Shown here in pieces: positions 1,076 through 21,881 of a stretch of 21,881 bases of DNA; positions within the stretch are counted from its first letter, which is position 1; every line of letters starts with the position of its first letter. A program made the translations under genes and the position numbers. Below the pieces are notes generated by a model. That model saw nothing but the letters and a program-made list of their open reading frames with translations, ran no database searches and was not told the origin of the DNA. Origin of the DNA: a virus (lineage: Duplodnaviria; Heunggongvirae; Uroviricota; Caudoviricetes); the IMG/VR virus record IMGVR_UViG_2671180357_000006, positions 1 to 21,881 of that record. One strand, 5' to 3'.

Positions 1076-3415
1076 TTAATCTTCTAATTCATCTGTCGGT
1101 GATGTCTTCTCGCGCCTGTCATCTATTGCCTGTAACGCAGCAATGATTTCAGCTAATGGCTTCTCCCGGTACATCTCGACGATCTGTGATTTGGTGTATT
1201 TCTTCTCGCCAATTTCCACACGCCCGCTGGCGCTCTTGGGCAGGTATCCTTCCTCCAGCATGTATTCGACCAGAGACTCGACGACGTCCAGCCCGCGAGT
1301 CGGGTCGAAGTAGAATTTCCATGAGCATTTGCCAAACGGAGGCGCGACTTTGTTTTTAATGCACTCGGCGCCAACGTCCTGTCCGATCTTCTCTTTGCCA
1401 TCCTTCATGACGGATGCACCCAGACGGATGCGCACCGACGCGTAGAACTTCGGAGAGTCGCCACCCGGAGACGTAGTCGGATCGCCAAACATCACACCAA
1501 TTTTGGTACGCACCTGGTTCAAGAAGATGATGCACGCGTTGTACTTACGCGCCCAAAGCGCCAGAGTAGGGAAGTTCGCACTTGTCGCGCGCGCCAGCGC
1601 CGTGTTGTCGTTCATGTTCAGCTGATCTTTGTCCTTCGCAGTGCCTTCTGCCATCTTGTCGAACTTCTCAGCCTTCGAGTTCGGAACCATCGACGCCAGA
1701 GAGTCGGCTACGATGCAGATAGGGGCTGTTTCCGGAATAAGCTCTTCGTCGCGCACCAGCTTGAGGATTGTGCCGATCAGCTCTACGGAGTCTTCGAAGG
1801 TATCCGGCTGTTTGTAGACCCACTGACCGTCGTCTTCGTCGGCGTTCAGTCCGTTCGCTACCGCCAGACCAACGTCGAAACTGTTTTCGTGGTCAAGGAA
1901 TACGGCCAGACCATCCTGTTTTTGTGCTGACACCATCGCAGCCGTCGCGAGGAATGTGTTGTGGCTGATAATCCCGTTAGACCAGAAAGAGTGTGTTTCC
2001 GGCATCGCTACGTCGAACGTTGGTGCTTCACCTTCCTCAATAGCCACGACTTCGTCGTAGAACAAGTTAGAGTCAATTACCGCTGCCAGTTGTGCAAACA
2101 GATGCTCGTTAAAACGATTCTTTCTGCCAATGAAGGAGACATAGATTTCTCGCAGTTTGTCTATTCCGACACGATCGCCGCGGCCAATAACGTGATCTAC
2201 CAGAACGTAGTCTTTACGAGAGGTCTTGGTGAGTGACTCGTAGAGTGATTTCACTAAGCCGCTGATGTGCGGAACGTAGCCTAAATAAGTGCGGTCAAAA
2301 CTAATGTCCCGTTTGGTTGCCACTGCTAAACGAGCCGGAGACTCGAACCCAATCGTTGACAGGAAAAGGTCGTAGTTAGAGCCACTGAATGACAGCCGGT
2401 AATATATGTTTTTATAACCTGCGACGTGTTTTTCAGAGATAGTTGACGTAATCCCCAGATTCAGGAGCATGAGGCGAATTTGCTGTAGCAGCAGCCCACT
2501 CGCGCTCACAACCTCAATGCAGCGACCATCATTGACGTGGCATTCCAGCTCAAAGTAGCCGCGAAGGAATGCAATTTGAGCCTCGCTATTGGCGCGACGC
2601 ACACTCAACGGAACCTGCTTGCCAGCAGCTTTCTCATACTCCAGACCATATTCTTTAAAAAGCAGCGAACGCACCTCTTTGCTAAACAGCACATGGTCTT
2701 CCGAGCCGTTATGTTTTCTCGTAACTGGCATCTTGTCTGATACCAGCGAAATGAGGCGGTAGTACTCATCCTTGATGAATGGATCTGTGTTAGAAACATG
2801 CACAGAATTTTCAGAGGCCACGTATCCGTCAGCAATTAAATAGCCCATCAGTTTTGCGATATTGGCATCCAAGTGCTGATCGCCGAATTGATGTGTGCCA
2901 ACCATTGAAGGAATAGTGTCGCCTACACTGATTTTTTCAGCATACCGCCAGACGATATTGCCTAAGTCGTCAACCACACGAATTGGGTGACGGAACGTAG
3001 CCTCGATGTAACCCCCTGATGCCAGCTTAATGCGCTTGAATTTGCGACGGTTGTTCCATGTCAGGTGTGAGGTCTTCTCTATCACGCCATTTTCATTGAT
3101 GAGTCCAACGTTATGCTCTACATCGCGAGTAGTGCATGTTGCTTTGTGCCCCTCAATCTCAAACAGTTCTTTCACTGTTACCATTCCACGCTCCGTCAGC
3201 AGCATGGTGTCTGCGGTAACACATTTCCCCGCGCTTGGTGGCCCGAAGACTTCAACGATACGCCCACATGGAAAACCACCGTCGTAACGTCCGGAAATGG
3301 CTTTGTTCAGTGGAGGGAAACCGGAGTCAATCCAGTGGGAGACCTTCTGAATCTCGTCATTGCTGCCGATTTTCTTTTTCAGCGCCAGTGCCAGTGCGGA
3401 TTTGCCTTTTGCCAT
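1076..3415 (-). CDS. RecA-family recombinase interrupted by an intein (779-aa precursor; exteins total 357 aa)
   Basis: N-extein ends GRIVEVFGPPSAGK and the C-extein starts TFLATAAMV, which rejoin to a Walker A motif GPPSAGKT. The C-extein carries FLNQVRTKIGVMFGDPTTSPGGDSPKFYASVRIRLG, closely matching the bacterial RecA core [36 protein letters not shown]. AGGAG RBS 7 nt upstream of the ATG. Confidence 0.9.
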   Translation of the reverse strand: MAKGKSALALALKKKIGSNDEIQKVSHWIDSGFPPLNKAISGRYDGGFPCGRIVEVFGPPSAGKCVTADTMLLTERGMVTVKELFEIEGHKATCTTRDVEHNVGLINENGVIEKTSHLTWNNRRKFKRIKLASGGYIEATFRHPIRVVDDLGNIVWRYAEKISVGDTIPSMVGTHQFGDQHLDANIAKLMGYLIADGYVASENSVHVSNTDPFIKDEYYRLISLVSDKMPVTRKHNGSEDHVLFSKEVRSLLFKEYGLEYEKAAGKQVPLSVRRANSEAQIAFLRGYFELECHVNDGRCIEVVSASGLLLQQIRLMLLNLGITSTISEKHVAGYKNIYYRLSFSGSNYDLFLSTIGFESPARLAVATKRDISFDRTYLGYVPHISGLVKSLYESLTKTSRKDYVLVDHVIGRGDRVGIDKLREIYVSFIGRKNRFNEHLFAQLAAVIDSNLFYDEVVAIEEGEAPTFDVAMPETHSFWSNGIISHNTFLATAAMVSAQKQDGLAVFLDHENSFDVGLAVANGLNADEDDGQWVYKQPDTFEDSVELIGTILKLVRDEELIPETAPICIVADSLASMVPNSKAEKFDKMAEGTAKDKDQLNMNDNTALARATSANFPTLALWARKYNACIIFLNQVRTKIGVMFGDPTTSPGGDSPKFYASVRIRLGASVMKDGKEKIGQDVGAECIKNKVAPPFGKCSWKFYFDPTRGLDVVESLVEYMLEEGYLPKSASGRVEIGEKKYTKSQIVEMYREKPLAEIIAALQAIDDRREKTSPTDELED
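1958..3223 (-). other. intein (422 aa) with LAGLIDADG homing-endonuclease domain, inserted in the RecA P-loop between K and T of GPPSAGK/T
   Basis: Starts with Cys (CVTADTMLL) and ends SHN, followed by Thr as the +1 extein residue. Two LAGLIDADG-type motifs inside (LMGYLIADGYV and FLRGYFELECHV). Removing it restores a canonical RecA P-loop. Confidence 0.8.
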
Positions 3416-3417
3416 GA

Positions 3418-3690
3418 TTAGGCTCCTTTTGATTCGTTGATTCGCTTCGAAGCAGCGGCTTCGTCAAACTTGATTGCGTCGTGGTTCAGGTGTTTGGCGA
3501 CGCGAGCGATGATCTTCACGACCTGCTCACTGACCAGCGCGAACTCACGCTCAGTAGCAGAAATGCCAGCAGCGCCCAGAATGTTCGGCAGCGCTACCAC
3601 AGCGTGCTCGCCGTGGCAGAAAACAATCTCCTTTGCCAGCATGGTTGGCGTAGTTGCCCCGCCATTAATGATGGATTTCAGCATCAGCAA
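3418..3690 (-). CDS. hypothetical small protein (90 aa)
   Basis: ORF in operon context; its start overlaps the stop of the upstream FEN gene by 7 bp and its stop lies 3 bp before the RecA-like start. No recognisable motif. Confidence 0.5.
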   Translation of the reverse strand: MLMLKSIINGGATTPTMLAKEIVFCHGEHAVVALPNILGAAGISATEREFALVSEQVVKIIARVAKHLNHDAIKFDEAAASKRINESKGA

Positions 3691-4628
3691 TACCTCTCAA
3701 ACGGCAGAACAAACACTTCCAGATCTTCCAGAAACGAACGGAAATTCAGCTCGTAACACATCTGTTCAAAGGCGCTCATATCGCGTGCGCCTTTAATCGA
3801 CTCGATTTCGCTGGGTGGGAATTTTGTGTCGATAAGGTTCATCAGCATCATGTTGCGCTTAAAGGCTTCGAGCATCCGGCAGCCCGTCTTCTCGTTGAAG
3901 GCGTTCTTTGCCAGCTTGTTGAATGCCGTCTTATAGCGACCTTTGTTGATGACAATGGAACCGTCGTTAATGCCGCGTACCATTGCGGCCACGCTTCCCC
4001 ATTCATGAAGCAGCTCTTTCGCGCCACCATCACCAATGCCACCTACGCCTTTGATGTTGTCCGAGTTATCGCCCTGCAATGCTTTCGCTTCCAGAAACGC
4101 GCGTGGGGTCGGCAGACCGGTCAGCTCTGCGAACTGTTCGAAGTTCACCTGCTTGTGCTTGGCGTCTTCACGCAGGCTTATCCAGCTCACGTTCTCACGA
4201 ACAAGCTGGAGCCAGTCGCCATCGCCCGTTAGCAGATAGATATGGTCAACAGTCGGCTGCGGAGCCAGACGAGAGACCAGCATTCCAGCCAGGTCATCCG
4301 CTTCTGCGTCCTTTGCAATGAGTTGGTTAACGCCCAGCGCGGTCATCATTTTCAAGATGTACGGCTTCTGGATGGCAAAGCCTTCTTTCATCTTCTTCAT
4401 GTCCGGGTCGTCGTCGCGGTTCGCTTTGTACTCCGGGTAGAAGTCGCGACGTTTGTCGCTGAATCCATCCCACAAGATCATTGGCCGGGCATGGAGAATT
4501 GAGGCGTAACGACGAACGTTCTTCACGAAGCCAAAAGCCGCCTGAACTTCCATCTCGCCGTTGTGTAATTTGTCGGATTGCTGGTGGTAATAGCCCAGGC
4601 TGTTACCGTCCACAAAGAGATAATTCAC
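3684..4628 (-). CDS. 5'-3' exonuclease / flap endonuclease (FEN family, Xni / T5 D15-like)
   Basis: Motifs YLFVDGNSLGYY (N-terminal nuclease motif), LLTGDGDWLQLV and ALQGDNSDNIKGVGGIG (helix-hairpin-helix region). Start reassigned to the GTG at 4626-4628, which has an AAGGAG RBS 7 nt upstream; the track's ATG at 4679 would place a terminator hairpin inside the coding sequence. Confidence 0.8.
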   Translation of the reverse strand: MNYLFVDGNSLGYYHQQSDKLHNGEMEVQAAFGFVKNVRRYASILHARPMILWDGFSDKRRDFYPEYKANRDDDPDMKKMKEGFAIQKPYILKMMTALGVNQLIAKDAEADDLAGMLVSRLAPQPTVDHIYLLTGDGDWLQLVRENVSWISLREDAKHKQVNFEQFAELTGLPTPRAFLEAKALQGDNSDNIKGVGGIGDGGAKELLHEWGSVAAMVRGINDGSIVINKGRYKTAFNKLAKNAFNEKTGCRMLEAFKRNMMLMNLIDTKFPPSEIESIKGARDMSAFEQMCYELNFRSFLEDLEVFVLPFERYC

Positions 4629-4643
4629 CGGTACACTCCTTCC

Positions 4644-4672
4644 AAAAAGTAAGGCGTCCGCAGACGCCTTAC
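4644..4672 (-). terminator. rho-independent terminator downstream of the SSB-like gene
   Basis: Perfect 10-bp stem GTAAGGCGTC / GACGCCTTAC with a 4-nt loop, followed on the minus strand by TTTTT; 17 bp after the stop at 4689. Confidence 0.65.
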
Positions 4673-4688
4673 TGGTCACGTTATGGGA

Positions 4689-5705
4689 TTACAGAGCGTC
4701 CAGTTCAGCCAGCAGGTTATCGAGACCTTCATCAGCTGGTACAGATGCAGCGGCAGCAGATGCTGAAGCACTTGCGGCTTCGGTGGCTTCCGGAGCTTTC
4801 GCTTCTTCCGGTTTGAACTCAGCTTCAGCGGCACGCAGGATCTCTTCATCAACCAGGCTGGTGGACTCTGGCGCCGGAGTATGTGCTGTAGCGACAGCAG
4901 CTGCGCCTTCCGTATGACCAGTGATAGAGCCAAAGCCTGGCAGTCCAGCTGCGGCTGATTTTGCAGCGGAAGAAATGGCTGGTGAGGACATAGTTGCTGC
5001 CGGAGCCGCAATACCAATCAGACGACCCATAGTGCGAGCCGTGGACAGCAAACGAGTTTCGTCAGCCTGGTTCGCATATGCGATCAGATCGTGTTGGGTA
5101 GTCCAGAGCTTCTCAGGAATGTCGCCTTTGTAGACTTTACGTTTCGGGGATACGTCGTACTTGGTGTCACGACCGGAACCGGTGCGTTTAATCAGGAACG
5201 CATAGCCTTCTTCTTTGCTCAGTGGGTTGCCAATATCGTCCGCAATATCTTCGGACATCACTTTGCAGATATCGTCGAAGACCGTAGACGGCAGCTCAAT
5301 CAGCTGGCATTTCTCTGCGTCCGCAAAGTCTTCACGCGCAGACAGAACACCGTTGACCAGATAACGCGGCGTAGCACGCATACTATTAATGCGCTCTTCC
5401 ATCGCTTTGTTGCCCTTAAAGCGAGCGCGACCTTCCATAACCATCTCACACAGCTGGCAAGCGTGGCCGTGGGTGTGTTGTTCGCAGATATAGGCGGTGG
5501 TTACATCTTTGCCTTCCTCATTCTGATGCTTAACGTAGTGCATACCGAAAGTCTGGAAGAACACGCCATTCGGATCGTCCTTGTTCGGAAAAATGCGCAG
5601 ATAGTTATTGCCATCTTTCAGACGGGTCAAATCAATGTTATTGCCACGTTTGGAAGCAATATCGCCACGGGTCTTGTTAAGCAGATCAAGTAATGACTTA
5701 GACAT
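4689..5705 (-). CDS. ssDNA-binding protein, T4 gp32-like (338 aa)
   Basis: Segment YLRIFPNKDDPNGVFFQTFGMHYVKH resembles gp32 [26 protein letters not shown]; a His/Cys cluster (CEQHTHGHACQLC) as in the gp32 zinc site; Ala/Ser-rich linker and acidic C-terminal tail DNLLAELDAL. AAGGAG RBS upstream. Confidence 0.65.
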   Translation of the reverse strand: MSKSLLDLLNKTRGDIASKRGNNIDLTRLKDGNNYLRIFPNKDDPNGVFFQTFGMHYVKHQNEEGKDVTTAYICEQHTHGHACQLCEMVMEGRARFKGNKAMEERINSMRATPRYLVNGVLSAREDFADAEKCQLIELPSTVFDDICKVMSEDIADDIGNPLSKEEGYAFLIKRTGSGRDTKYDVSPKRKVYKGDIPEKLWTTQHDLIAYANQADETRLLSTARTMGRLIGIAAPAATMSSPAISSAAKSAAAGLPGFGSITGHTEGAAAVATAHTPAPESTSLVDEEILRAAEAEFKPEEAKAPEATEAASASASAAAASVPADEGLDNLLAELDAL

Positions 5706-5824
5706 GTATTTCTCCTTGTTGTGATTGTGGCCATTGGCGCTATGCGCATTGGGCGTTCGTTTGTTCGTGGCTCTTTCGAGCGAGAAGAATGATAGATCAG
5801 TACTTACTTACTATATAGCATAAA

Positions 5825-6298
5825 TTAACGGGGTAAATGGAATCGTTCGGCCCCCAGACGCTCTATCTCTACGATAGCCATCTTCGACGCCTGGACAATC
5901 ATATCGCGGCGGTGGGAGAAGGCGGCTACAGCGTGCTTGTACAGGTCTGCAATGTGTCGAGCATCGTCGAGTTTCTGGCGCTTTGCGAGGTATTGCGGGT
6001 TGGTTCTAACCTTCGCTTCCAGTACGGATTCATTAAACTTAATTCCATTCATACTCAAGCTCTTACGCTCGTTGTCATAGATTTTTGCCTCGATCGCGTC
6101 GAGAGAGAGTTTTGCATCTGCAACCTCACGTTCTGCCCGTGCCAGCTTAGAGCCATACTCCATCAACAGACGCGGTTGCTGACGCCAGACTTCCTCCAGA
6201 TTGTCGCGGTCGAACTCCAGATCGGACATGATTTTTTCGTAGATATCGGTGCTCATAATGTTATCTATATACTTATTTTCGCATATCAATTTTATCAT
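5825..6298 (-). CDS. hypothetical protein, charged and probably coiled-coil (157 aa; may start at the internal Met at 6256)
   Basis: K/E/R/D-rich composition typical of a real protein, whereas the fully overlapping plus-strand ORF 5837..6346 is Cys-rich and low-complexity. No clear Shine-Dalgarno at either candidate start. Confidence 0.45.
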   Translation of the reverse strand: MIKLICENKYIDNIMSTDIYEKIMSDLEFDRDNLEEVWRQQPRLLMEYGSKLARAEREVADAKLSLDAIEAKIYDNERKSLSMNGIKFNESVLEAKVRTNPQYLAKRQKLDDARHIADLYKHAVAAFSHRRDMIVQASKMAIVEIERLGAERFHLPR

Positions 6299-6365
6299 GT
6301 TGGAATCAGGCGGTGGAGCTGGCTTGCTGAAGAACTTGAGGGCTGACGTAGATAAGCTGATGTAA

Positions 6366-6926
6366 ATGGGGATAATTCTGATAACCTGTAGTCAGTACTG
6401 CGTAGTCGCAGATGCTCTGTATAGCCACGGTTGCGATGATGCGCTCATTTGCTACTACGGAAACTCAGTGTATGTAGAATTTGACCGAGAAGCTAAATCT
6501 TTAGATGAAGCAATCGAATCGGCAATCCTTGATATTGAAACAGCAGGCATTGGCGCAGTGGTGGAATCGGTAGATTCAGCACTGGTAGGCTTGAGCGATA
6601 TTGCTCAACTCTCTGGCTTAACGCGCCAGGCTATTACTCTGCTTAAAGACGGATTACGTGGCAAAGGTGATTTTCCTTGCCCTGTTCAGCGTATCAGCGG
6701 TCAGTCTCCACTCTGGGACTGGGCGGAAGTCGCTAAATGGTTGAACGACTGCGGTCGTCTTGACAGCAAAGACGAAAAAGCACGGGAAGAACTGGTGCGT
6801 AACGCGCGCACATTGAGTACGTGGAATCTTGCCCTGCGTATAAGATCGTTGGGCGACATTCATGAGGTGGAGAGAGTTACTCGCTCACTCAGTCACTCGC
6901 AAGACTGCGAAAAAATTTGCGCATAA
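6366..6926 (+). CDS. putative HTH DNA-binding protein, possibly HicB-like antitoxin fold (186 aa)
   Basis: The only plus-strand gene inside the minus-strand module. Central segment GLSDIAQLSGLTRQAITLLKDG looks like a helix-turn-helix; the N-terminal part loosely resembles HicB-type antitoxins. Ends at a strong bidirectional terminator. Confidence 0.5.
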   Translation: MGIILITCSQYCVVADALYSHGCDDALICYYGNSVYVEFDREAKSLDEAIESAILDIETAGIGAVVESVDSALVGLSDIAQLSGLTRQAITLLKDGLRGKGDFPCPVQRISGQSPLWDWAEVAKWLNDCGRLDSKDEKAREELVRNARTLSTWNLALRIRSLGDIHEVERVTRSLSHSQDCEKICA

Positions 6927-6953
6927 AACCCGCCAAATGGCGGGTTTTTCTTT
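6925..6953. terminator. bidirectional rho-independent terminator between convergent genes
   Basis: AAAA-CCCGCC-AAAT-GGCGGG-TTTTTCTTT: 6-bp GC stem with an A-run on one side and a T-run on the other, lying between the plus-gene stop (6926) and the DnaE stop (6955). Confidence 0.8.
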
Positions 6954-6954
6954 A

Positions 6955-9900
6955 TTACTTATTTATCGTCTCCGCAATATCAGTCAGAATGGCCTCCAGT
7001 CGCTCTCCTTCTTCCGGTCGGAAGTAAAGGATATTCGGGTTAAATCCGTAGAAAACGGTCGCATCCAGCTCCGGCAGATACTCTTTGCGTCCAACCAGGT
7101 CGGATGGTTTGCTCTTGTTGTTGAAGAGCGACGTCGCCCGGCTGCCACACGTCAGCACATAGGTCGGACGCACCAGATTTATCTCTTCACGCATAAAGTC
7201 GGTGAACTGGCCGATCTCGTCTTTGGTGTAGTCCTTCTCTTTGTCCTTCACCTTTTTGCACACGCCTGTGACGTAGAGATCGCCCATGCGCAGATCGCCT
7301 GCAGTAAGCAACTTCGCCTTAAAGTCGTCGTAGCCGTTCTCCATGAAGTAGCCGGTACGCCCATCATTGCCGTTCGCGTTGTCCAGAATGACCATGATTT
7401 TCGGCTTAATGCCAATGCTTGGGCGGATCAGGTCGTCTCCCAGACCCATTTCGGCCGCCATGCGAGTCATCAGTACATTCACCTCGGCAGAGCGCTTAGG
7501 GTTCATCTCGAACGGTCGAGAGGCTTTTACAGCGTCGATCACCAGATTGCCCATCAACTCTGCCTGGTCGCGCAGTCGTTCCGGATCTGTCGCTGGCAGA
7601 CTGCCAGACTCAATCGATGCGAACGCACCGACTTTTTGCAGCGACTCGCGTACCCGGCTGTTACATGCACGCTTCTCGACCGCTTCCTCAAATTGCGCCA
7701 GTGATTCGAATTTGCCGCCAACTTTCTCACGCGCTCTCATGATGGCCTGGCAACCATTCTCAGAGCAGCCTTTCACAGCAGAGAATGGTGCATACAGAAC
7801 CTGACTGCCGTCTTCCAGCGTGCGGATCTCAATTCGGTTAGATGACACGTTAACGTCTGGTGGCAATACGCGAATGCCATAGGTCAGCGCATCTTTAACC
7901 AGCCCCTGGTGCTTATCCTCGCCCAGAATGGTGAGCGCAGCAGCGAAGAACTCAGCAGGGTAATGTGTCTTTAACCACATAGACTGATAGCTGATTAAAG
8001 AATAAGCAACACTGTGTGATTTGTTGAAGGCATATCCACCGAACTTCTCAAAGGCGTCCCATATTTCTTGGGCTTTTTTCTTACTGAGACCTTCTTGTTC
8101 AGAGACGATCTCCACGTAGTCTATGCCGTCACTAATAGCCTCGCTGTAGCTTCTACGCTTACCGTCTGAGCAATCCAGTTTTGCGTGTTTGTGAACCTCT
8201 ACAGTACCTCCATTTTTGAGTGACAGTGTCACCCAGCCTGCTTGTGCTCGTTCTACAAAATCGCTGCCGATCGCTTTCATCTTATCCATGTTCTTTTTAC
8301 CGATAGCGGAACGCAGAGCGTCTGCTTCGGCCATAGAGAACCCGGCAAGTACTCGGGAACTTTGCATGATTTGTTCCTGATAGAGCAAAACACCATTAGT
8401 CTCCCGGGTGACTTCCTCAAGACGCGGATGAATTGAATGTGGAGCCATGAAGCCTTTGGCCACGGAGACATAGTCGTCCAACATGCCGGATTGGATCGGG
8501 CCAGGTCGGAAGAGTGCGGTCGTGGCGACAACGGTTTTGAAGCTCATTGGCTCAATGCCACCGCCCAGATCTTTAAGCAGCTTGCGCATGGGGCCGGACT
8601 CCAGCTGGAATACGCCCTGCGTGTACCCTGCAGCGAACCCATCCAGAACCTTACGATCGTCCAGTGGAATAGCATCGAGATTGATGTCTTCCCCGGTACT
8701 CTCTTTGATGTAGCGTTTCGCGCTATCCAGCAGATCGAGCGTTGCCAGACCGAGAACGTCCAGCTTAATCAGCCCCATCGCCTCGCAGTAACGTTTATCG
8801 AACGCAATACAGCGAGCGTTGCCACGCAGCTCGACGGGCGTGCGCTCTACCAGTGGAACGCCAGCGACGATCATCCCCGCAGCGTGACGACCAAAACCAC
8901 GCATCAGGCTTTGCAGCTTACACGCCGCTTTGAACGCTTCCGGGTTTTTCGTGGCGTATTTGTCCAGGCTGGCCAGTTGCTCGCGCAGCTCTTCCAGAGA
9001 CAGGCTATCGTCTTCCAGATTCTTGAACTCTTTGGATACCGCCATATCCGCAGCGTCGACACCGTAAATACGCGCAGTGTCTCGCAGCGCAGAAGCGGCG
9101 CCCAGATAGGTGAAGTTTGGAATACCGGCAACGTAATCTTCGCCATAGCGTTCATTCAGATACTCGATCACCTCATGACGACGTGCCTGGCTGAAGTCCA
9201 GATCCGCATCCGGTAAGTCAAGACGTTCAGGGTTGATGAAACGCTCAAACAGAAGACCGTGACGGATAGGATCGACGTTGGTTATGCCTATGCACCACGC
9301 CACCAGAGAACCGGCAGAGGAACCACGACCTGGCCCAACCGGTATTCCTGTTTCACGGCAGTGATTCATCAGATCGCGTACCATCAGGAAGTAGCCACAG
9401 AAGCCCAGACGGGTCAGTGTGTCCATTTCGTACTTCAGTCGCTCAACATACACTCGGTGCTCAGAAGCCGGTGGTGTGTAGCCAAACTCTTTAGTAGTTA
9501 GACGCTTGCGTAGCCCCGCGACAGCCAGCTTCATCAGCGTTGCAGGCTCGTCGTCTGCCATCTTGGGCAGTGCTGGTGGCAGTTCATGCCAGCGCCATGT
9601 GCAGGCTTCAATAATGGTGTCCTGCGTTGTTGAGACCATTGCAGCTGTTACCGGTACGCCCATGCGAACGGAGAAGGCTTTCAGCGCTTCAAGGAGATGG
9701 CGACGACCATTAACAGCGTTATCTCGCTGGTGGGGGATGCGCAGACGATGCGGCTGGTCGATTTTGATGTTGTTCGTAACCATGTGCGCAATGTCTTTAA
9801 TGTCAGCGTCGTCGATCGCTTCGTAATAAGCGGGATAGAACGCCACTGGCTCTATTTTCAGTGCGCTCGCCACTTTCATCGCCCGGACGTTAATCTGGTC

Positions 9901-10461
9901 GTAGAATGGGGTAGGGTGCGGATAAACCACGCTGTAGAAGTTATCGCGTCCTCCAGCTGTCACCAGCGTCCCGATAATCTTTGCGAAGTCCCGGCGCTGG
10001 AATACACTGCCAATGTCGGACGTCAGCAGGATGATGTTGCCTTTGGCATATGCGGCCGCCAGCTGGTCAAGTGCCAGACGCGGAACAAAGTAGAATTGCT
10101 CGCGCTTGTTGGCTAAGGTCATCAGTTCGCACACGTCGCGATAACCTTGCTCATTCTTTATCAGTGCCGTGAAGCAGTAGCTTCGATCACGCACCAATGA
10201 TTCCATACATCCTCCTGACTCTTTCGCCAGGCGGGCGCGATGCTCGTATGTCGGATCGTCGACCACATTCAGCTTAACACCACAAATAACCGCCATGTCG
10301 TCGCCAGCGGCACGCTGCAGGGGGATCACACTGGCAATGTTCATGCTGTCAGCGGAAATGACAGCGGTGTAGCCAGCGTCTCTCGCGATTTTCACCGCGT
10401 TTTCTGCTTTTAGAGCTGACTCTCCCAGGGAGAAGTCAGTTCTGACCATCAGAGCCTTCAT
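6955..10461 (-). CDS. DNA polymerase III alpha-type (DnaE family, C-family polymerase), 1168 aa, with a non-canonical C-terminal domain
   Basis: Strong DnaE motifs: [10 protein letters not shown]...[27 protein letters not shown]...[21 protein letters not shown] (palm with catalytic aspartates), FRPGP, [42 protein letters not shown]. The N-terminal PHP-like region lacks the His pairs. Confidence 0.92.
   Translation of the reverse strand: [1168 protein letters not shown]
6958..7404 (-). other. C-terminal ~150-aa domain of the DnaE-like protein resembling a family-4 uracil-DNA glycosylase fold with degenerate catalytic motifs
   Basis: [18 protein letters not shown]...LYVTGVCKK...[17 protein letters not shown]...[14 protein letters not shown] aligns by eye with family-4 UDG (LVLVGEGPGEEEDKTGRPF...VYITNIVKCRPP...IVPLGAVAA...FPMFHPAYLLRNP); GEGPG is replaced by DNANG and HP by NP. 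It sits where bacterial DnaE has its OB-fold and tau-binding region. Confidence 0.55.
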
Positions 10462-10639
10462 GTGCTTTTACCTTTCTGGTTTTCTTGATTTTGTCATTGG
10501 GGAAGCCAACGAACTTCCCATACATCGAAATCGCAACCTCTTTGGCTGACTGGTGGCACTCGGGTCTATCCGGACATGCCAAACAAGCACTGCCAGTTTC
10601 AGACGCTGCGATAAGAGAGCCGAAACATCCTTTACGCAC
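10436..10639 (-). CDS. possible small Cys-rich protein (67 aa, GTG start)
   Basis: ORF filling the 180-bp gap between the CobS-like stop and the DnaE start; contains CLACPDRPECH; overlaps the DnaE start by 26 nt. Could instead be non-coding leader. Confidence 0.25.
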   Translation of the reverse strand: MRKGCFGSLIAASETGSACLACPDRPECHQSAKEVAISMYGKFVGFPNDKIKKTRKVKAHEGSDGQN

Positions 10640-10641
10640 GA

Positions 10642-11877
10642 TTAACCAAAGATCTTCTGAACCACTTCACGCGCTGCCTGTGCAGACGTGGATGGAAGTT
10701 TATTGATAAACGACTTTTCGATGCCGGCAGAGAAATCACCGCGCATCATTCCGATTTTGGCGGACAGCAGCAGCTCACGAGGCCCGATTGGCTGGCTAAT
10801 CTGATGCTTTTCATAACCTTCACGGATAAGATTCGCGAACTTCACCATCTTCTCGGCGTATTCGCGGATGACGCCTGCTTCAGCCAGCATGTTGACTTCT
10901 GCCTTCGTACTCATGTACTTCACGTTTGAAACAATGCCAAAACGCGAGAAGTTCGCTGCGTTCTGGATGTTTGTGCCTTGATAGAGACCTGTTTCGTCGC
11001 CAGAGCCGTTAGTGTTGCCAGTGCCAATGAAGGCAAAGCGTTTATGCGGGGTGATGCGGCGCCAGTCCGCAGTTGCCTCTTTGATGATCAGCGGCTCTCC
11101 TTCAAGAACTGGCTGATACACACCCAGAATCTGCGGGAACGCGAAGTCATATTCATCAGCGAGGTAAACCCAACCATTTTTCATCGCCAGCGCTAGTAAA
11201 CCCGGTTCGAAATAGGTGGAACCATCGCGAGCGAGGATCTGGCCTGTAACGTGCGCTTCCTCCATAGACGCCGTATGCTGGGCGCGGATCAGTGGTCGAT
11301 TTAGCAGGGCACATAGCTGCGTAGGAAGAGAAGATTTACCGGTTCCTGCATGGCCCCAGAGATAACCCGGGATTCCGATTTCCAGCATCATGAAGATGTC
11401 TTTAATCAGGTCGAAGTCGCCATACACATAGTTCTTCTTCGCTTCCGGTACGAACTCCGGATATGGCGTGTTGACGTTGACTGTCACCTGTAGTGGCTTT
11501 CCGCGTGGCGTTCCCAGCTCTTTGATCGTTATGCCAAGCAGCTCGTGCGCGGCCACCAGTTCGGTCTTGTATTCGACCGTTCCTGCGTAGCCCGGATGTG
11601 CGCTAATCTCCGCTACTTTTCCTTCGCCTGAATGCTTTTCGGCACGCTTCTCATTGAGTTTGGCCAGTGCCGTGCGAGAGATCGTTGGTTCATCTGGAAA
11701 CGCAGAGGTGTACATCTTCACCACTTCGTCCACGTCCAGACCCTTCGCAGACTCAGGAATATTCTCGCAACGGCCCATAGAGATATGGGATTTCAGGTAA
11801 TGAAAGGATTTGCCACACCACTTGCAGACGATGGCTTCCGGCAAATGTTCTTCTTGCTGTAGTGCAGTAGCGGTCAT
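10642..11877 (-). CDS. CobS/MoxR-like AAA+ ATPase with N-terminal zinc-finger-like extension (411 aa)
   Basis: Walker A GHAGTGKSS, Walker B region VYLADEYDFAFPQILGVYQPVLEG, sensor region TNIQNAANFSRF as in CobS/MoxR. N-terminal CKWCGKSFHYLKSHISMGRC Cys/His cluster. TAAGGA RBS upstream. Confidence 0.8.
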   Translation of the reverse strand: MTATALQQEEHLPEAIVCKWCGKSFHYLKSHISMGRCENIPESAKGLDVDEVVKMYTSAFPDEPTISRTALAKLNEKRAEKHSGEGKVAEISAHPGYAGTVEYKTELVAAHELLGITIKELGTPRGKPLQVTVNVNTPYPEFVPEAKKNYVYGDFDLIKDIFMMLEIGIPGYLWGHAGTGKSSLPTQLCALLNRPLIRAQHTASMEEAHVTGQILARDGSTYFEPGLLALAMKNGWVYLADEYDFAFPQILGVYQPVLEGEPLIIKEATADWRRITPHKRFAFIGTGNTNGSGDETGLYQGTNIQNAANFSRFGIVSNVKYMSTKAEVNMLAEAGVIREYAEKMVKFANLIREGYEKHQISQPIGPRELLLSAKIGMMRGDFSAGIEKSFINKLPSTSAQAAREVVQKIFG

Positions 11878-16574: not shown

Positions 16575-16991
16575 TCAGCTAGAATGGAAACCTTCTGCGA
16601 CTTCAGCGAAGTAGCTGAGCAACCTAGTATCTCTTGCTGGCATACGATCGTGAGCTGGAGTGACTAGCCCCATCAGCAAAAAACGCCCGCTATCCCACAT
16701 GTGCTCGGTATAAACGAGATAGTGGTTTGAGGTTCGGTTGTAGTTCTCTTGCCTTGCGTTCCAGGTAAGCTGGAAATGCAAATTGACGTGAATATGCTGG
16801 ACATTAGCATCAACGGCGAACGGCGGGAAGTCAAATGGTGCATCTCGTCCAAGAAGATTAGATGGTGCGCCAGTTGATTTGTAAGTAATGAACTCGGATT
16901 TGAGCTGACTTTCTAGGTCAGGGTAAACGACAAAAGTGGGCTGAAAAAAATCATCCCACGTAACTTGACTGTATTCAGCCGTTAATGCCAT
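16575..16991 (-). CDS. hypothetical protein (138 aa), second gene of a two-gene cassette
   Basis: ORF with ordinary composition; start overlaps the stop of the upstream 182-aa gene by 10 bp (translational coupling). No recognisable motif. Confidence 0.5.
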   Translation of the reverse strand: MALTAEYSQVTWDDFFQPTFVVYPDLESQLKSEFITYKSTGAPSNLLGRDAPFDFPPFAVDANVQHIHVNLHFQLTWNARQENYNRTSNHYLVYTEHMWDSGRFLLMGLVTPAHDRMPARDTRLLSYFAEVAEGFHSS

Positions 16992-17530
16992 TTAGCCGCA
17001 GCCTTGTTGCCAGTCTCTAATAGATGGTTCATGGCTAAAAGGTTGACACCAGAGTCACGCACTACAGAAGTGCGTGTAATCTGATCAATCAGATTGAGAT
17101 AGTTTTTGGTCGCAATACTGACCATTTTAATAGCCTTAAAAAACGCAAACTCAACAGTGTTTTTTTCGTAAGACATGATGACGTCTTTTTCAGGTAACAT
17201 CAAAACAAAAGATTCTGCGATACCGGCTACATGAATAGTTTGATTCTTAATTTCTTCCGCTACTTTGATAGCAGCAAAGAAGTCAGTGTCAGCATAATGA
17301 GCAAGTTCAGCGCGGCTTGAACGCAGTTCTTTAGCCAATTCATTGAGAGCAGCTGTAAGATCACTGATGTCGGTTTTGTTGACTCTAGCGCCCATCTCAT
17401 AAACCCGTTCGACAATCGTAGGCTGACACGCAACCGCTTTGGGTTGCGGCTGGATACTGGCAAGAACCAGTGCCACTGCTGCCTGCAAATGCTGGATTTT
17501 AAATTTCACGATAGACTCCATAATCGTCAT
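16982..17530 (-). CDS. hypothetical protein (182 aa), first gene of a two-gene cassette
   Basis: ORF downstream of the tRNA terminator, co-oriented with the 138-aa gene. No recognisable motif. Confidence 0.5.
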   Translation of the reverse strand: MTIMESIVKFKIQHLQAAVALVLASIQPQPKAVACQPTIVERVYEMGARVNKTDISDLTAALNELAKELRSSRAELAHYADTDFFAAIKVAEEIKNQTIHVAGIAESFVLMLPEKDVIMSYEKNTVEFAFFKAIKMVSIATKNYLNLIDQITRTSVVRDSGVNLLAMNHLLETGNKAAAKWH

Positions 17531-17968: not shown

Positions 17969-18006
17969 AGATCTCGAATCTTTCTCGGTGGTTGATTGCC
18001 GTTAGA

Positions 18007-18044
18007 GGGGGAACCGCAGAATTCGGAAAAAATCGTACGCTAAG
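18007..18044 (+). repeat. 38-bp terminal inverted repeat of the Tn1721-like transposon (outer end at 18007)
   Basis: GGGGGAACCGCAGAATTCGGAAAAAATCGTACGCTAAG: Tn21-family IR signature including the EcoRI site known from Tn1721 ends. Flanking 5 bp outside are TTAGA. Confidence 0.85.
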
Positions 18045-18144
18045 CTAACGGTGTTCTCGTGACAGCTCTTTGACTAGGCTTTCTAAGGCCATTCTGATAG
18101 CCCTGACTTCCTGAAAAGCCATGGCTAAAATTTGTGCGGCTAAA

Positions 18145-18176
18145 AGGGATAACCGATGGTAAAGTAAGTTATCCCT
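18145..18176 (-). terminator. hairpin 3' of mcp; weak candidate terminator
   Basis: 9-bp stem AGGGATAAC / GTTATCCCT with a 14-nt loop, about 20 bp after the mcp stop; only TTTA follows on the minus strand. Confidence 0.35.
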
Positions 18177-18195
18177 GTCGAGATACTGAAAAGCG

Positions 18196-19773
18196 TTATC
18201 CTCGTTTTTCCCAAAACTGTTTTGCCAGTTCGCTCAGAGCGCTAGTTAACTGAGCGACAGATTTCGCACTTTGCAAATTATTCTGCCCGGTCTGTACATT
18301 GGTATCAGCAGCATCGCGTATATTGATAATACTGCGGTTTATGTCTTCACTTACTGCTCCCTGCTGCTCGACCGCAGTCGCTATTTGCGCGTTCATGTCG
18401 GTAATTTCGTTAACGCGTTGGCCAATTCCATCAAGAGCTGTAGCTGCTTCCTCTGCGTGAGCTACACTCGTGTGCGCTTGCCGACTACTTTGCTCCATGA
18501 CTGTAACAGCGGATTGCGCTCGCTCTTGTAGAGCGCTGATCATGCTTTGAATATCCGTTGTCGATTGCTGTGTGCGAGCAGCAAGACTGCGAACCTCATC
18601 GGCGACAACAGCAAAACCACGCCCCTGCTCACCAGCACGCGCGGCCTCAATTGCTGCGTTGAGTGCCAACAAATTCGTTTGCTCGGCGATCCCTCGTATA
18701 ACGTCAAGAACTTTTGATATCTCGTTACTTTGACCTTCAAGCTCATGAATAACCTGAGTGGCTTGCCTAATTTCACCTTCAAGGGCAGTGATTGACTGGC
18801 TTGTGTGGGCTACCAGACGCTGGCCAGATGCCGTCTCAGTGTCTGCTCTTCCGGCCGCATCTGCAGCATGCTGTGCATTGCTCGCAACCTCTTGAATGCT
18901 TGCCACCATTTGGTTTACTGCCGTTGCTATTTGATCTGTCTCTGCCTGCTGCTCAACTGTAAGTACATTGCTTGACTCAATATCCTTTAGTAGGCCTCGG
19001 GTGTGTTCGCTAAGCCGATTTGATGCATCACCTATGCGACCTACTATGGCGCCTGTTTCAGCTTGCATCATTCGTAAAGCAAACTCTATTTGGCCAAACT
19101 CATCGGTGCGCCCAGTGTAGAGGGATTGACTTAATGGGTTATTGGAAATATTCCTGGCTCTTTCAACCAGTCTTCCAAGAGGAGAGAGAATAGCCAAAAC
19201 ACTAACAGAGCTTAAGCTTCCTGACATTAAAGTGGCTAACAATAAGCTGCTTATTGATGTATCAGTAAGCATGCCGGCAGCCATTGCGCTTGATATAATA
19301 CTACCCCATATGAGCAAGAGTATTTTCACGGAAAAGCTAGCAGCCAATTTCGGCCTCGCGGCCTTCCCGCTTCTCAATTGAGCATATAATTTTTCCGCAG
19401 CCAAAACCTGCTCAGGTTCAGGCTTGGTCCTTACAGACTGGTATTCAACAATCGAACCATTCTTAGCTATTGGCGTTACATAAGCACTTACCCAATAGTG
19501 GTCGCCATTTTTACAGCGATTTTTTACTAGCCCCATCCATGAGCGGCCAGATTTTAATGTACTCCACATATGCTCAAATGCAGCAGGCGGCATATCTGGG
19601 TGTCTTACGATGTTGTGAGGCTGGCCTAATAGTTCTTCCTCAGTGAAACCACTGATTTTAATGAAGTCAGGATTAACGTATGTGATATGGCTTTGAGGGG
19701 AGGTAGTCGAAAGAATATTGGCATCTTTTGGGAGTTCTAAGTTTCGACCCGTCACTGGTAAATTCTGGCGCAT
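18196..19773 (-). CDS. mcp: methyl-accepting chemotaxis protein with N-terminal PAS domain (Aer-like); transposon passenger gene (525 aa)
   Basis: N-terminus [75 protein letters not shown] parallels the E. coli Aer PAS region; the MCP signalling domain has [32 protein letters not shown]; hydrophobic segment in the middle; GAGG RBS upstream. Confidence 0.9.
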
Positions 19774-19924
19774 AAGAACCTCAAGGGTTGGCTGTTTTAT
19801 TTTATTGTTTTCGGCATTAAGCCCAATTTCTTGAGCGTTACGATAAAGCTAGCATGGAAACGATAGGTGCAAGCAAGTTAAGGGTTGCATCGCGCATGTC
19901 AATCTAGGCTATACCCTAACTTGA

Positions 19925-20075
19925 TGTCAGGCAGGGCCGCGCCGCTTCGTCAGAATAGAGTCTGCTTTCCCATTTTTTGACACATGCCCGCGAAGGTTAT
20001 AGATTTCAGCCTGACAGAAATGGGCTTTGAGGCACAACGGAACAGAAAGTGCACTTAAGCCGCCTTCAACCAAGG
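19925..20075. promoter_or_regulatory. res (resolution) site and tnpR promoter region of the transposon
   Basis: Clustered imperfect TGTCA/TGACA-type half-site pairs (TGTCAGGCAGG...CGTCAG, CGTCAGAATAGAGTCTG...TTGACA, TGACACATGCCC...CAGCCTGACA) between mcp and tnpR, as expected for Tn21-family res subsites; followed by an AAGGAG RBS before the tnpR GTG. Confidence 0.5.
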
Positions 20076-20082
20076 AGACATC

Positions 20083-20643
20083 GTGCAGGGGCACCGCATC
20101 GGCTACGTCCGGGTCAGCAGCTTTGACCAGAACCCGGAACGCCAGCTGGAACAAACCCAGGTGAGCAAGGTGTTCACCGACAAGGCATCGGGCAAGGACA
20201 CCCAGCGCCCCCAGCTCGAAGCGCTGCTGAGCTTCGTCCGCGAAGGCGATACAGTGGTGGTGCGCAGCATGGATCGGCTGGCCCGCAACCTCGATGACCT
20301 GCGTCGCTTGGTACAGAAGCTGACTCAGCGCGGCGTGCGCATCGAGTTCCTGAAGGAGGGCCTGGTGTTCACTGGCGAGGACTCGCCGATGGCCAACCTG
20401 ATGCTGTCGGTGATGGGGGCCTTCGCTGAGTTCGAGCGCGCCCTGATCCGCGAGCGGCAGCGTGAGGGCATCGCCTTGGCCAAGCAGCGTGGCGCGTACC
20501 GGGGCCGCAAGAAAGCCCTGTCCGATGAGCAGGCTGCTACCCTGCGGCAGCGAGCGACGGCCGGCGAGCCCAAGGCGCAGCTTGCCCGCGAGTTCAACAT
20601 CAGCCGGGAAACCCTCTACCAGTACCTCCGCACGGACGACTGA
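20083..20643 (+). CDS. tnpR: serine resolvase TnpR (Tn21/Tn1721 subgroup), GTG start
   Basis: MQGHRIGYVRVSSFDQNPERQLE... with the catalytic serine region, and C-terminal HTH ISRETLYQYLRTD; near-identical by recollection to Tn1721/Tn501-type resolvase. Confidence 0.95.
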   Translation: MQGHRIGYVRVSSFDQNPERQLEQTQVSKVFTDKASGKDTQRPQLEALLSFVREGDTVVVRSMDRLARNLDDLRRLVQKLTQRGVRIEFLKEGLVFTGEDSPMANLMLSVMGAFAEFERALIRERQREGIALAKQRGAYRGRKKALSDEQAATLRQRATAGEPKAQLAREFNISRETLYQYLRTDD

Positions 20644-20646
20644 CAC

Positions 20647-21881
20647 ATGCCGCGTCGCTTGATCCTCTCGGCCACGGAGCGGGACACCCTGCTTGCGCTG
20701 CCGGAAAGCCAGGATGACCTGATCCGCTACTACACCTTCAACGACTCCGACCTGTCGCTGATCCGCCAGCGACGCGGCGACGCCAACCGCCTCGGCTTCG
20801 CCGTGCAGCTCTGCCTGCTGCGCTACCCCGGTTACGCGCTGGGAACCGACAGCGAGCTGCCCGAGCCGGTCATCCTGTGGGTGGCGAAGCAAGTCCAGGC
20901 CGAGCCGGCGAGCTGGGCAAAGTACGGCGAGCGCGACGTGACCCGTCGCGAGCATGCCCAGGAACTGCGCACCTACCTGCAACTGGCCCCGTTCGGCCTG
21001 TCCGACTTCCGCGCCCTGGTGCGCGAGCTAACCGAGCTGGCCCAGCAGACCGACAAAGGCTTGCTGCTGGCCGGTCAGGCCCTGGAGAGCCTACGGCAGA
21101 AACGACGCATCCTGCCGGCGCTGAGCGTGATTGACCGGGCCTGCTCGGAAGCCATTGCGCGAGCCAATCGGCGGGTCTACCGCGCCCTGGTCGAACCACT
21201 CACGGACTCGCATCGGGCCAAGCTGGACGAGCTGTTGAAGCTCAAGGCCGGCAGCAGCATCACCTGGTTGACCTGGCTGCGCCAGGCACCGCTGAAACCC
21301 AACTCTCGGCACATGCTGGAACACATCGAGCGGCTGAAGACATTTCAGTTGGTGGACTTGCCCGAAGGCCTGGGCCGGCACATCCACCAGAACCGCCTGC
21401 TCAAGCTGGCCCGCGAGGGTGGGCAGATGACGCCCAAAGACCTCGGTAAGTTCGAGCCGCAGCGCCGCTACGCGACCCTGGCCGCCGTGGTGCTGGAGAG
21501 CACCGCGACCGTGATCGATGAGCTGGTCGATCTGCATGACCGCATCCTGGTCAAGCTGTTCAGCGGCGCGAAGCACAAGCATCAGCAGCAGTTCCAGAAG
21601 CAGGGCAAGGCGATCAACGACAAGGTGCGCCTGTACTCCAGGATCGGCCAGGCGCTGCTGGAAGCGAAGGAAAGCGGCAGCGACCCCTATGCCGCCATCG
21701 AGGCGGTGATTCCCTGGGACGAGTTCACCGAGAGCGTCAGCGAGGCCGAGCTGCTGGCCCGGCCGGAAGGCTTCGACCACCTGCACCTGGTCGGCGAGAA
21801 CTTCGCCACCCTGCGCCGTTACACGCCGGCCTTGCTGGAGGTGCTGGAACTGCGCGCCGCGCCGGCCGCGCAAGGCGTGCT
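20647..21881 (+). CDS. tnpA: Tn3-family transposase TnpA, 5' partial (first ~411 codons; runs off the window end)
   Basis: ATG at 20647, 3 nt after the tnpR stop; translation [44 protein letters not shown]...[12 protein letters not shown]...[10 protein letters not shown]... matches the Tn21-family TnpA N-terminus. Absent from the ORF track because no stop is reached. Confidence 0.92.

Follow-up and report, generated by a model that had tools for sequence, protein, structure and literature searches.

Among intein hot spots, the P-loop is the main one (Novikova et al., 2016; PMC4760082), and the position between its Lys and Thr has been termed “classic” for the insertion of P-loop inteins (Kelley et al., 2016; PMC5050341). 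A survey of RadA and RecA inteins distinguished five insertion points, a to e (Topilina et al., 2015, NAR 43:6631; PMC4513877). One of these, RecA “c2 (65-486)”, is listed in Table 1 of that work for eight Escherichia coli strains, two Enterobacter strains and Salmonella enterica 557928. It lies at the same P-loop point as the inteins of archaeal RadA; given that the two inteins are dissimilar, they have been considered independent invasions (Topilina et al., 2015; PMC4513877). Here we analyze an insert at this point in a RecA-like recombinase gene encoded within a 21,881-nt window (the whole stretch of DNA under study, positions 1 to 21,881 of IMGVR_UViG_2671180357_000006; all coordinates below are those of the window). 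The insert is very likely a canonical class-1 intein with a nested two-motif LAGLIDADG endonuclease, located between the Walker A Lys and Thr of a RecA from an SSU5-like phage-plasmid and corresponding to the catalogued allele c2, and it would be expected to splice, cleave and home. The P-loop allele is already known, as RecA insertion point c2 published in 2015, and is no new intein discovery.

The precursor gene (1076..3415, minus strand, as are all its parts described below) was delineated from the list of open reading frames (ORFs) and Pfam matches and encodes a phage-plasmid RecA-like recombinase of 779 aa and 86.6 kDa. The N-extein (aa 1-64; 3224..3415) ends with the Walker A residues GPPSAGK and is identical to the RecA of Salmonella phage SSU5 at 64 of 64 residues, and the C-extein (aa 487-779; 1076..1957) comprises the remainder of the RecA core, with the Pfam RecA match at aa 484-703, and a C-terminal tail. 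Between them lies the intein (precursor aa 65-486, 422 aa, 47.6 kDa; 1958..3223, 1266 nt), a HINT domain with a nested LAGLIDADG endonuclease. The codon of Cys65 begins at base 3223 and that of Asn486 ends at 1958, so that the N junction reads ...EVFGPPSAGK|CVTADTMLL... and the C junction ...FWSNGIISHN|TFLATAAM.... The original prediction, made from the sequence alone, had placed a 422-aa intein at exactly these coordinates and had put the insertion within the Walker A P-loop GPPSAGK/T of a RecA-family recombinase from a mobile element; all of this was reproduced, the break falling between Lys and Thr as an exact gap relative to SSU5.

All the signature motifs of an intein can be located in the insert. 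Block A, CVTADTMLLTERG (3185..3223), contains Cys1, the first nucleophile, and matches TIGR01445; its C-x-T-A-D-T is conserved in relatives. In block B, GGYIEATFRHPIRV (2975..3016), the TxxH motif is T76-F-R-H79 in intein numbering, and this T-x-x-H is kept in 8 of 8 aligned relatives that span the block, with adjacent residues varying. Block F, PTFDVAMPETHSFWSNG (1973..2023), with Asp404 and His411, is the most conserved stretch among the relatives and is followed by block G, IISHN (1958..1972; TIGR01443), with the penultimate His421 and terminal Asn422. The next codon, ACA (1955..1957), specifies Thr+1, which is both the Walker A Thr and the nucleophile of the second splicing step. The N-terminal Cys, the TxxH of block B, and blocks F and G with His-Asn followed by Thr+1 together define a class-1 intein. 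Nested between blocks B and F are two LAGLIDADG motifs: LMGYLIADG (intein aa 125-133; 2825..2851), with Asp132 at position 8, aligns to the first motif of PI-PkoII (2cw7), and LRGYFELEC (intein aa 220-228; 2540..2566), with Glu227 at position 8 and Cys instead of the usual Gly at position 9, aligns to GYFIGDG of the same enzyme.

These assignments are supported by profile matches above the curated cut-offs, namely Pfam Intein_splicing (44.6 bits vs 35.8), LAGLIDADG_3 (65.3 vs 22.5; precursor aa 279-356), TIGR01445 intein_Nterm (35.8 vs 24.5) and TIGR01443 intein_Cterm (17.9 vs 15.6). The hallmarks noted originally (N-terminal Cys, His-Asn, Thr+1 and two LAGLIDADG-like motifs) are thus all present, and the masses estimated at the time, about 39 kDa for the spliced product and about 47 kDa for the intein, agree with the calculated 39.0 and 47.6 kDa. 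The GC content of the intein is 47.9%, compared with 53-54% for the exteins. Further cysteines occur nearby, at extein Cys50 and intein Cys30.

Comparison with intein-less alleles shows the insert to be a discrete element. Aligned to the SSU5 RecA, the precursor has a single 422-residue gap, C65-N486, and the exteins are 96% identical. Across six intein-less orthologues (SSU5, Yersinia pestis pMT, E. coli pSLy3, E. coli AVS0968, Klebsiella ZRKP02 and Enterobacter OSU), GPPSAGK-TFLATAAM is continuous in 6 of 6, without a gap or an extra residue, and the same 1266-nt insert is found in seven intein-containing alleles, the window included, all of which are intact ORFs of 779-780 aa. The empty sites read …GCCGGTAAA|ACCTTTTTG… in SSU5 recA, …GCTGGCAAA|ACCTTCCTG… in Klebsiella recA and …GCAGGGAAA|ACGTTCCTT… in pSLy3 recA, and the junction peptide predicted for the spliced RecA of the window is GPPSAGKTFLATAAM. 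An ordinary domain insertion lacking blocks A, B, F and G, which would have contradicted the intein assignment, is not borne out, given the presence of all four blocks, the exact gap in the orthologues and the intein fold described below.

One of the intein-less genes, pSLy3 recA (NZ_CP015915.1 2501-3574), is mosaic: over the first ~330 nt it corresponds to the diverged AVS0968-type allele, and from ~nt 330 to the end there is one difference in ~690 nt from the C-extein of the window. Such a structure would fit intein loss or replacement via gene conversion from an empty allele, or else a plain recombinant backbone.

An AlphaFold2 model of the insert, built on a 12-sequence alignment (pLDDT 87.1, pTM 0.88), contains beta-rich segments 1-107 and 387-422 that flank a helical, alpha/beta middle part, as in a predicted HINT fold interrupted by an endonuclease. 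In the middle part, aa ~120-300, helices are predicted to alternate with strand pairs, which fits the alpha-beta-beta-alpha-beta-beta-alpha core of LAGLIDADG enzymes. The top Foldseek matches in the PDB are the TliVMA intein-homing endonuclease 7qss (E 7e-25, TM 0.73), PI-PfuI 1dq3, PI-PkoII 2cw7 and PI-SceI. The splicing part additionally matches mini-inteins (GyrA 1am2, 4oz6), and the endonuclease part I-DmoI and I-Tsp061I, with target-normalised TM of 0.63-0.73.

How this locus relates to the described inteins can now be specified. The original prediction had left undecided whether the P-loop site is a known allele; set against the known RecA/RadA insertion sites, it is c2 (65-486) of Table 1 in PMC4513877, an identification that is based on the same coordinates, 65-486, derived independently here, the same genera and the same P-loop position, rather than on sequence. 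In that paper, the extein is referred to as “bacterial E. coli RecA”, with no phage or plasmid setting; here, the E. coli copies are on SSU5-type plasmids, and we found no paper in the searchable literature that ties this intein to SSU5 or to phage-plasmids. The names given to the copies by PGAP differ, some being “intein-containing recombinase RecA” and others “LAGLIDADG family homing endonuclease”.

The c1 intein of Pyrococcus horikoshii (Pho) RadA shares the insertion point at the end of the P-loop, Thr+1 and an extein of the RecA/RadA superfamily, but it is a mini-intein of ~170 aa without an endonuclease, its similarity to the present intein is marginal (PDB 4e2u, E 0.1), and its splicing has been demonstrated to be conditional. 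The RecA inteins of Mycobacterium tuberculosis (Mtb) and Mycobacterium leprae are likewise of the LAGLIDADG type, and some copies of the present intein share their PGAP product name, but they occupy site a (residue 252) and site b (residue 206), respectively, at the monomer-monomer interface, as opposed to residue 65. An Mtb-type RecA intein was rejected because of the different site and a score of 93.1 bits vs a cut-off of 1024 for NF007072, “intein-containing recombinase RecA”. The archaeal P-loop inteins of the RFC small subunit and aIF2 also reside within a GxxGxGK|T loop, albeit with other exteins and hosts, and the NCBIfam RFC-S and IF2 models match precursor aa 53-368, i.e., N-extein residues 53-64 and the first ~300 residues of the intein, at 1e-21. 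The HINT plus LAGLIDADG two-domain architecture is shared with TliVMA 7qss, PI-PfuI 1dq3, PI-PkoII 2cw7 and PI-SceI (Foldseek TM 0.6-0.73), but sequence identity to the archaeal P-loop inteins and solved intein-endonucleases is only 15-21%. The mycobacteriophage TerL1-a P-loop inteins (PMC5050341) differ in having a terminase extein and actinobacterial hosts; phrog_17415, a terminase-intein PHROG, is a weak match to the precursor.

The intein interrupts the RecA gene of SSU5-like phage-plasmids of Enterobacteriaceae and not chromosomal recA. The Pfam RecA profile matches the precursor with 126.9 bits vs a cut-off of 27, split in two around the insert; phrog_9666 matches it over its whole length, and the exteins match phrog_97, “UvsX-like recombinase”, at 3e-83. 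PDB RecA chains match the C-extein at 1e-27, and query residue 489 is aligned to E. coli RecA residue 76; from the alignment offsets, the insertion corresponds to K72|T73 of E. coli RecA. The bacterial RecA equivalog model TIGR02012 scores 135 bits, below its cut-off of 325. Given this low score, the matches to Pfam RecA and phrog_97 and the occurrence of the copies on plasmids and phages, we classify the extein as a phage-type RecA-family recombinase. The location on a mobile element, as originally proposed, is directly seen in complete E. coli genomes (n=5,426), where 179 matching places are on plasmids and 0 on chromosomes, so that an origin from chromosomal recA was rejected. The precursor gene is 99.9% identical to copies on E. 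coli plasmids of ~105-115 kb, e.g., NZ_CP101235.1, and 92-93% identical to those of phages Cyrano, PhiR41_1 and vB_KpnS_p4727; SSU5 matches the two extein pieces only. The SSU5-like phage-plasmid family includes pHCM2 and pMT1, and its members often bear resistance and virulence cargo in clinical Enterobacteriaceae.

Among related phage-plasmids, the presence of the intein is polymorphic. In PLSDB, the intein DNA was detected in 248 plasmids, in 240 of them at full length (match covering at least 80% of the intein), with the carriers belonging to Escherichia (123), Klebsiella (71), Enterobacter (41), Citrobacter (6) and Salmonella (1). The recA gene or the spliced extein sequence occurs in 709-755 plasmids, 63 of them recorded from Yersinia and 49 from Salmonella, and approximately two thirds of the related plasmids lack the intein, among them 63 of the 63 from Yersinia and 48 of the 49 from Salmonella. 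In complete E. coli genomes, the intein is present in 114 of 178 recA-carrying plasmids. The exact protein of the window is found on 59 contigs of the protein collection searched, and its 90%-identity cluster has 1,496 members.

More distant relatives come from metagenomes. Eleven were aligned, at 28-45% identity, and all of those with the junction present have it at the same point of the RecA P-loop; they reside, among other hosts, in a canonical bacterial RecA encoded by a 550-kb contig, on a 102-kb contig of phage-like character and in an SSU5-like element that is only distantly related. A further metagenomic protein (P0019, 542 aa) is a RuvB-like AAA+ protein with a related mini-intein at the position GPPGLGK|C…HN|T of its P-loop, suggesting that this intein lineage has moved between P-loop ATPases. 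The distant SSU5-like element (L017; ENA ERZ27257820 k141_7541, 8001-10388) has the gene order CobT-AAA_5-DnaE-gp32-exonuclease-RecA, as in the element of the window, and the P-loop of its RecA is interrupted at the same point by an intein of 43% identity. In this gene, which was called as two ORFs, an in-frame TGA takes the place of the block F Trp (HSF*SNGFISHN|T); given that the neighbouring genes are intact, this is probably a nonsense mutation rather than recoding of TGA as Trp. The most diverged copy of the intein itself (92% nucleotide identity) is in E. albertii p2014C-4015-1 (NZ_CP034165.1 ~2309-5300), where recA is intact through the intein, its C-extein is truncated by IS911, the gene is unannotated and the plasmid is reduced to 63.8 kb.

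The divergence of the intein is out of step with that of the genes that harbor it. The intein DNA of the window is 99.8% identical to that from Klebsiella, 99.7% to that from Enterobacter and 96.8-97.6% to those of other E. coli, Shigella and E. marmotae lineages, whereas the exteins of the same genes are only 82-86% identical to those of the window, with the exception of the Enterobacter allele (96-98%). In Nei-Gojobori estimates, the synonymous divergence (dS) of the intein is 0.003-0.094, compared with ~0.9-2.2 for the extein in the same gene pairs, i.e., at least 10-fold lower. The ratio of nonsynonymous to synonymous divergence (dN/dS) is ~0.16 for the intein (the whole element, endonuclease included) and ~0.01-0.02 for the extein; the value for the intein points to purifying selection.

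Furthermore, the bases that flank the insertion point appear to have traveled with the intein. The Thr+1 codon is ACA in 7 of 7 intein-containing alleles and ACC or ACG in 6 of 6 intein-less ones, and in matched pairs with and without the intein, the differences are found almost only beside the junction, which lies between nt 192 and 193 of the spliced gene. In the Klebsiella pair, 7 of 1020 extein positions differ, three of these being spliced nt 186, 189 and 195; of the 18 differences in the Enterobacter pair, 8 are within spliced nt 186-213; the S. sonnei allele has a donor tract at spliced nt 186-234; and between E. coli 2013C and AVS0968, nt 195 is the sole difference near the junction. 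Such co-conversion footprints, from a few bases to ~45 bases long and found in at least three extein backgrounds, are centered on the junction, as predicted for repeated break repair at the insertion site. They imply at least three or four independent invasions as well as an endonuclease that tolerates wobble differences among its sites. Combined, the low divergence of the intein and the footprints indicate that homing has probably occurred recently.

The single nucleotide polymorphisms (SNPs) of the intein fall in four blocks (intein nt 57-84, 192-280, 420-444 and 804-1151). These are combined differently in S. sonnei, Cyrano, E. marmotae and E. coli 2013C, which shows that the intein alleles themselves recombine.

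Taken together, these features suggest the following life cycle. The 86.6-kDa precursor would be unable to bind or hydrolyse ATP because GPPSAGK and its Thr lie 422 residues apart. By analogy with the established biochemistry of class-1 inteins, and given the observed arrangement of the catalytic residues, Cys1 would initiate splicing by an N-S acyl shift, and the resulting thioester would be attacked by Thr+1, i.e., by the Walker A Thr itself. Cyclisation of Asn422, aided by His421 and residues of blocks B and F, would then set free the 47.6-kDa intein and leave a 39.0-kDa RecA in which the GPPSAGKT loop is restored. In a cell that harbors two related phage-plasmids, the free intein would be expected to cut the intein-less recA at GGxAAA|ACx, and double-strand-break repair would copy in the intein together with a short stretch of flanking extein. 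The population data are in line with homing of this kind by the LAGLIDADG domain with its position-8 acids Asp132 and Glu227.

Several points weigh against this scheme. We found no splicing or cleavage experiment on this intein in the searchable literature, the c2 paper mentioning only unpublished modelling (PMC4513877), and the sample of alleles that were read base by base is small (13, seven with and six without the intein). Given the atypical second LAGLIDADG motif (ELEC for D-x-D-G), endonuclease activity is not guaranteed, and the low divergence of the intein could stem from general recombination between co-resident mosaic phage-plasmids, whose recA genes are clearly mosaic, as in pSLy3. 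It is conceivable, if rather unlikely, that the intein splices but has an inactive or decaying endonuclease, and spreads between co-resident phage-plasmids only through ordinary homologous recombination or gene conversion, without site-specific cleavage. Such decay would be consistent with the Cys in place of the usual Gly of the second motif, with the relatives in which this motif reads ECGC and lacks the position-8 acid (P0004, P0007), and with those in which the endonuclease region is degenerate or missing (P0011, P0015, P0017, P0018), just as the reshuffled SNP blocks and the mosaic recA genes imply frequent general recombination. However, both position-8 acids, Asp132 and Glu227, are present in the copy of the window, and the dN/dS of ~0.16 covers the endonuclease along with the rest of the intein. 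The replaced tracts are very short and, in three or more extein backgrounds, have the insertion point exactly at their center, a pattern that is predicted by break repair and is hard to obtain via crossovers in flanks that are only ~84% identical. Another option, namely that a domain insertion unable to splice is present or that the gene is a pseudogene, leaving the phage-plasmid without a working RecA, would find support in decaying copies such as the E. albertii recA cut by IS911 and the in-frame TGA in block F of the distant SSU5-like element. We consider it highly improbable, given that blocks A, B, F and G retain every catalytic residue and Thr+1 is intact, the boundaries match the gap of the intein-less orthologues to the residue, 7 of 7 intein-containing alleles read intact, at least 80% of the intein is covered in 240 PLSDB plasmids, and the predicted fold matches that of splicing-competent inteins.

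Whether the intein is in addition maintained as a conditional switch, with splicing and hence RecA activity responding to redox state, single-stranded DNA or DNA damage, or temperature, is a separate question, in that such a layer would be compatible with a splicing and homing intein and would tie recombination to the lysogenic-to-lytic change. Conditional splicing has been documented for Pho RadA at the equivalent P-loop point (PMC4513877, PMC5238726) and reported for Mtb RecA (bioRxiv 10.1101/2024.04.15.589443), the present intein employs Cys1, near which further cysteines occur (extein Cys50, intein Cys30), and its frequency in E. coli recA-carrying plasmids is high. Nevertheless, according to Topilina et al. 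(2015; PMC4513877), steric constraints make the extein-intein lock modelled for Pho RadA infeasible in the precursor of E. coli RecA, some two thirds of the related plasmids, including practically all of those from Yersinia and Salmonella, manage without the intein, and the sweep-like signature fits selfish spread, with no need for a benefit to the host. We therefore regard a switch as improbable, and the post-translational gating of recombination that was raised in the original prediction as speculation by analogy.

With homing by a splicing-competent intein as the preferred reading, the main addition to what is known of c2 is the context: the first E. coli intein of the literature rides on SSU5-like phage-plasmids and not on the chromosome. 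Because it is polymorphic and bears the signature of recent spread, intein homing can conveniently be measured in this natural system, whose host is tractable, and the same system is suitable for asking whether P-loop inteins regulate recombinases. A stronger proposition, which we put forward only as an outside chance, is that the intein is an active gene drive among SSU5-like phage-plasmids that has recently been invading Escherichia, Klebsiella, Enterobacter and Citrobacter, and that the cleavage-repair cycle or conditional splicing measurably shapes recombination and mosaicism between co-resident elements. If so, the drive would act in phage-plasmids that often carry resistance and virulence cargo in clinical Enterobacteriaceae.

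The surroundings of recA are those of a phage-plasmid. Upstream of the gene and in the same orientation (-) lies a replication and recombination module (3418..10461; Pfam) that comprises a small ORF and genes for a 5'-3' exonuclease (3684-4679), a gp32-like single-stranded DNA-binding protein (SSB; 4689-5705) and DnaE (6955-10461). The order of the genes nearest to recA (small ORF, exonuclease, SSB-like gene) is common to SSU5, Y. pestis pMT1 and the Klebsiella and Enterobacter plasmids; genes for an AAA_5 ATPase, CobT and an integrase are also found in the vicinity. The expectation that the window would be collinear with NZ_CP101235, the best recA match, had to be rejected because the two are collinear over parts only; the plasmids closest to the window overall are NZ_CP079776 and NZ_CP141793. 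In particular, NZ_CP101235.1 is not collinear with the first ~1 kb of the window. Downstream of recA (2652-11698), this plasmid encodes an SNF2-related protein, a DUF4391 protein, a DNA methyltransferase and a DEAD/DEAH helicase, a block that resembles a restriction or defence island, in the place occupied by membrane-protein and SPFH genes in SSU5, pMT1 and other elements.

At the other end of the window, the phage-plasmid backbone, which is 99.5% identical to NZ_CP079776, ends at position 18006. The remainder (18007-21881) is a Tn3-family, TnAs1/Tn1721-like transposon that is 99.9% identical to sequences in more than 5,000 plasmids from many genera. It includes a PAS-HAMP-MCP “chemotaxis receptor” gene (18196-19773, minus strand), a transposase fragment and a gene annotated elsewhere as “recombinase family protein”. 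Within the backbone, 16575-16991 (minus strand) encodes a YafO-family type II toxin (Pfam, 1e-19). The 182-aa ORF upstream of it (16982-17530), which overlaps the toxin gene by 10 bases and has no Pfam match, may be the antitoxin partner.

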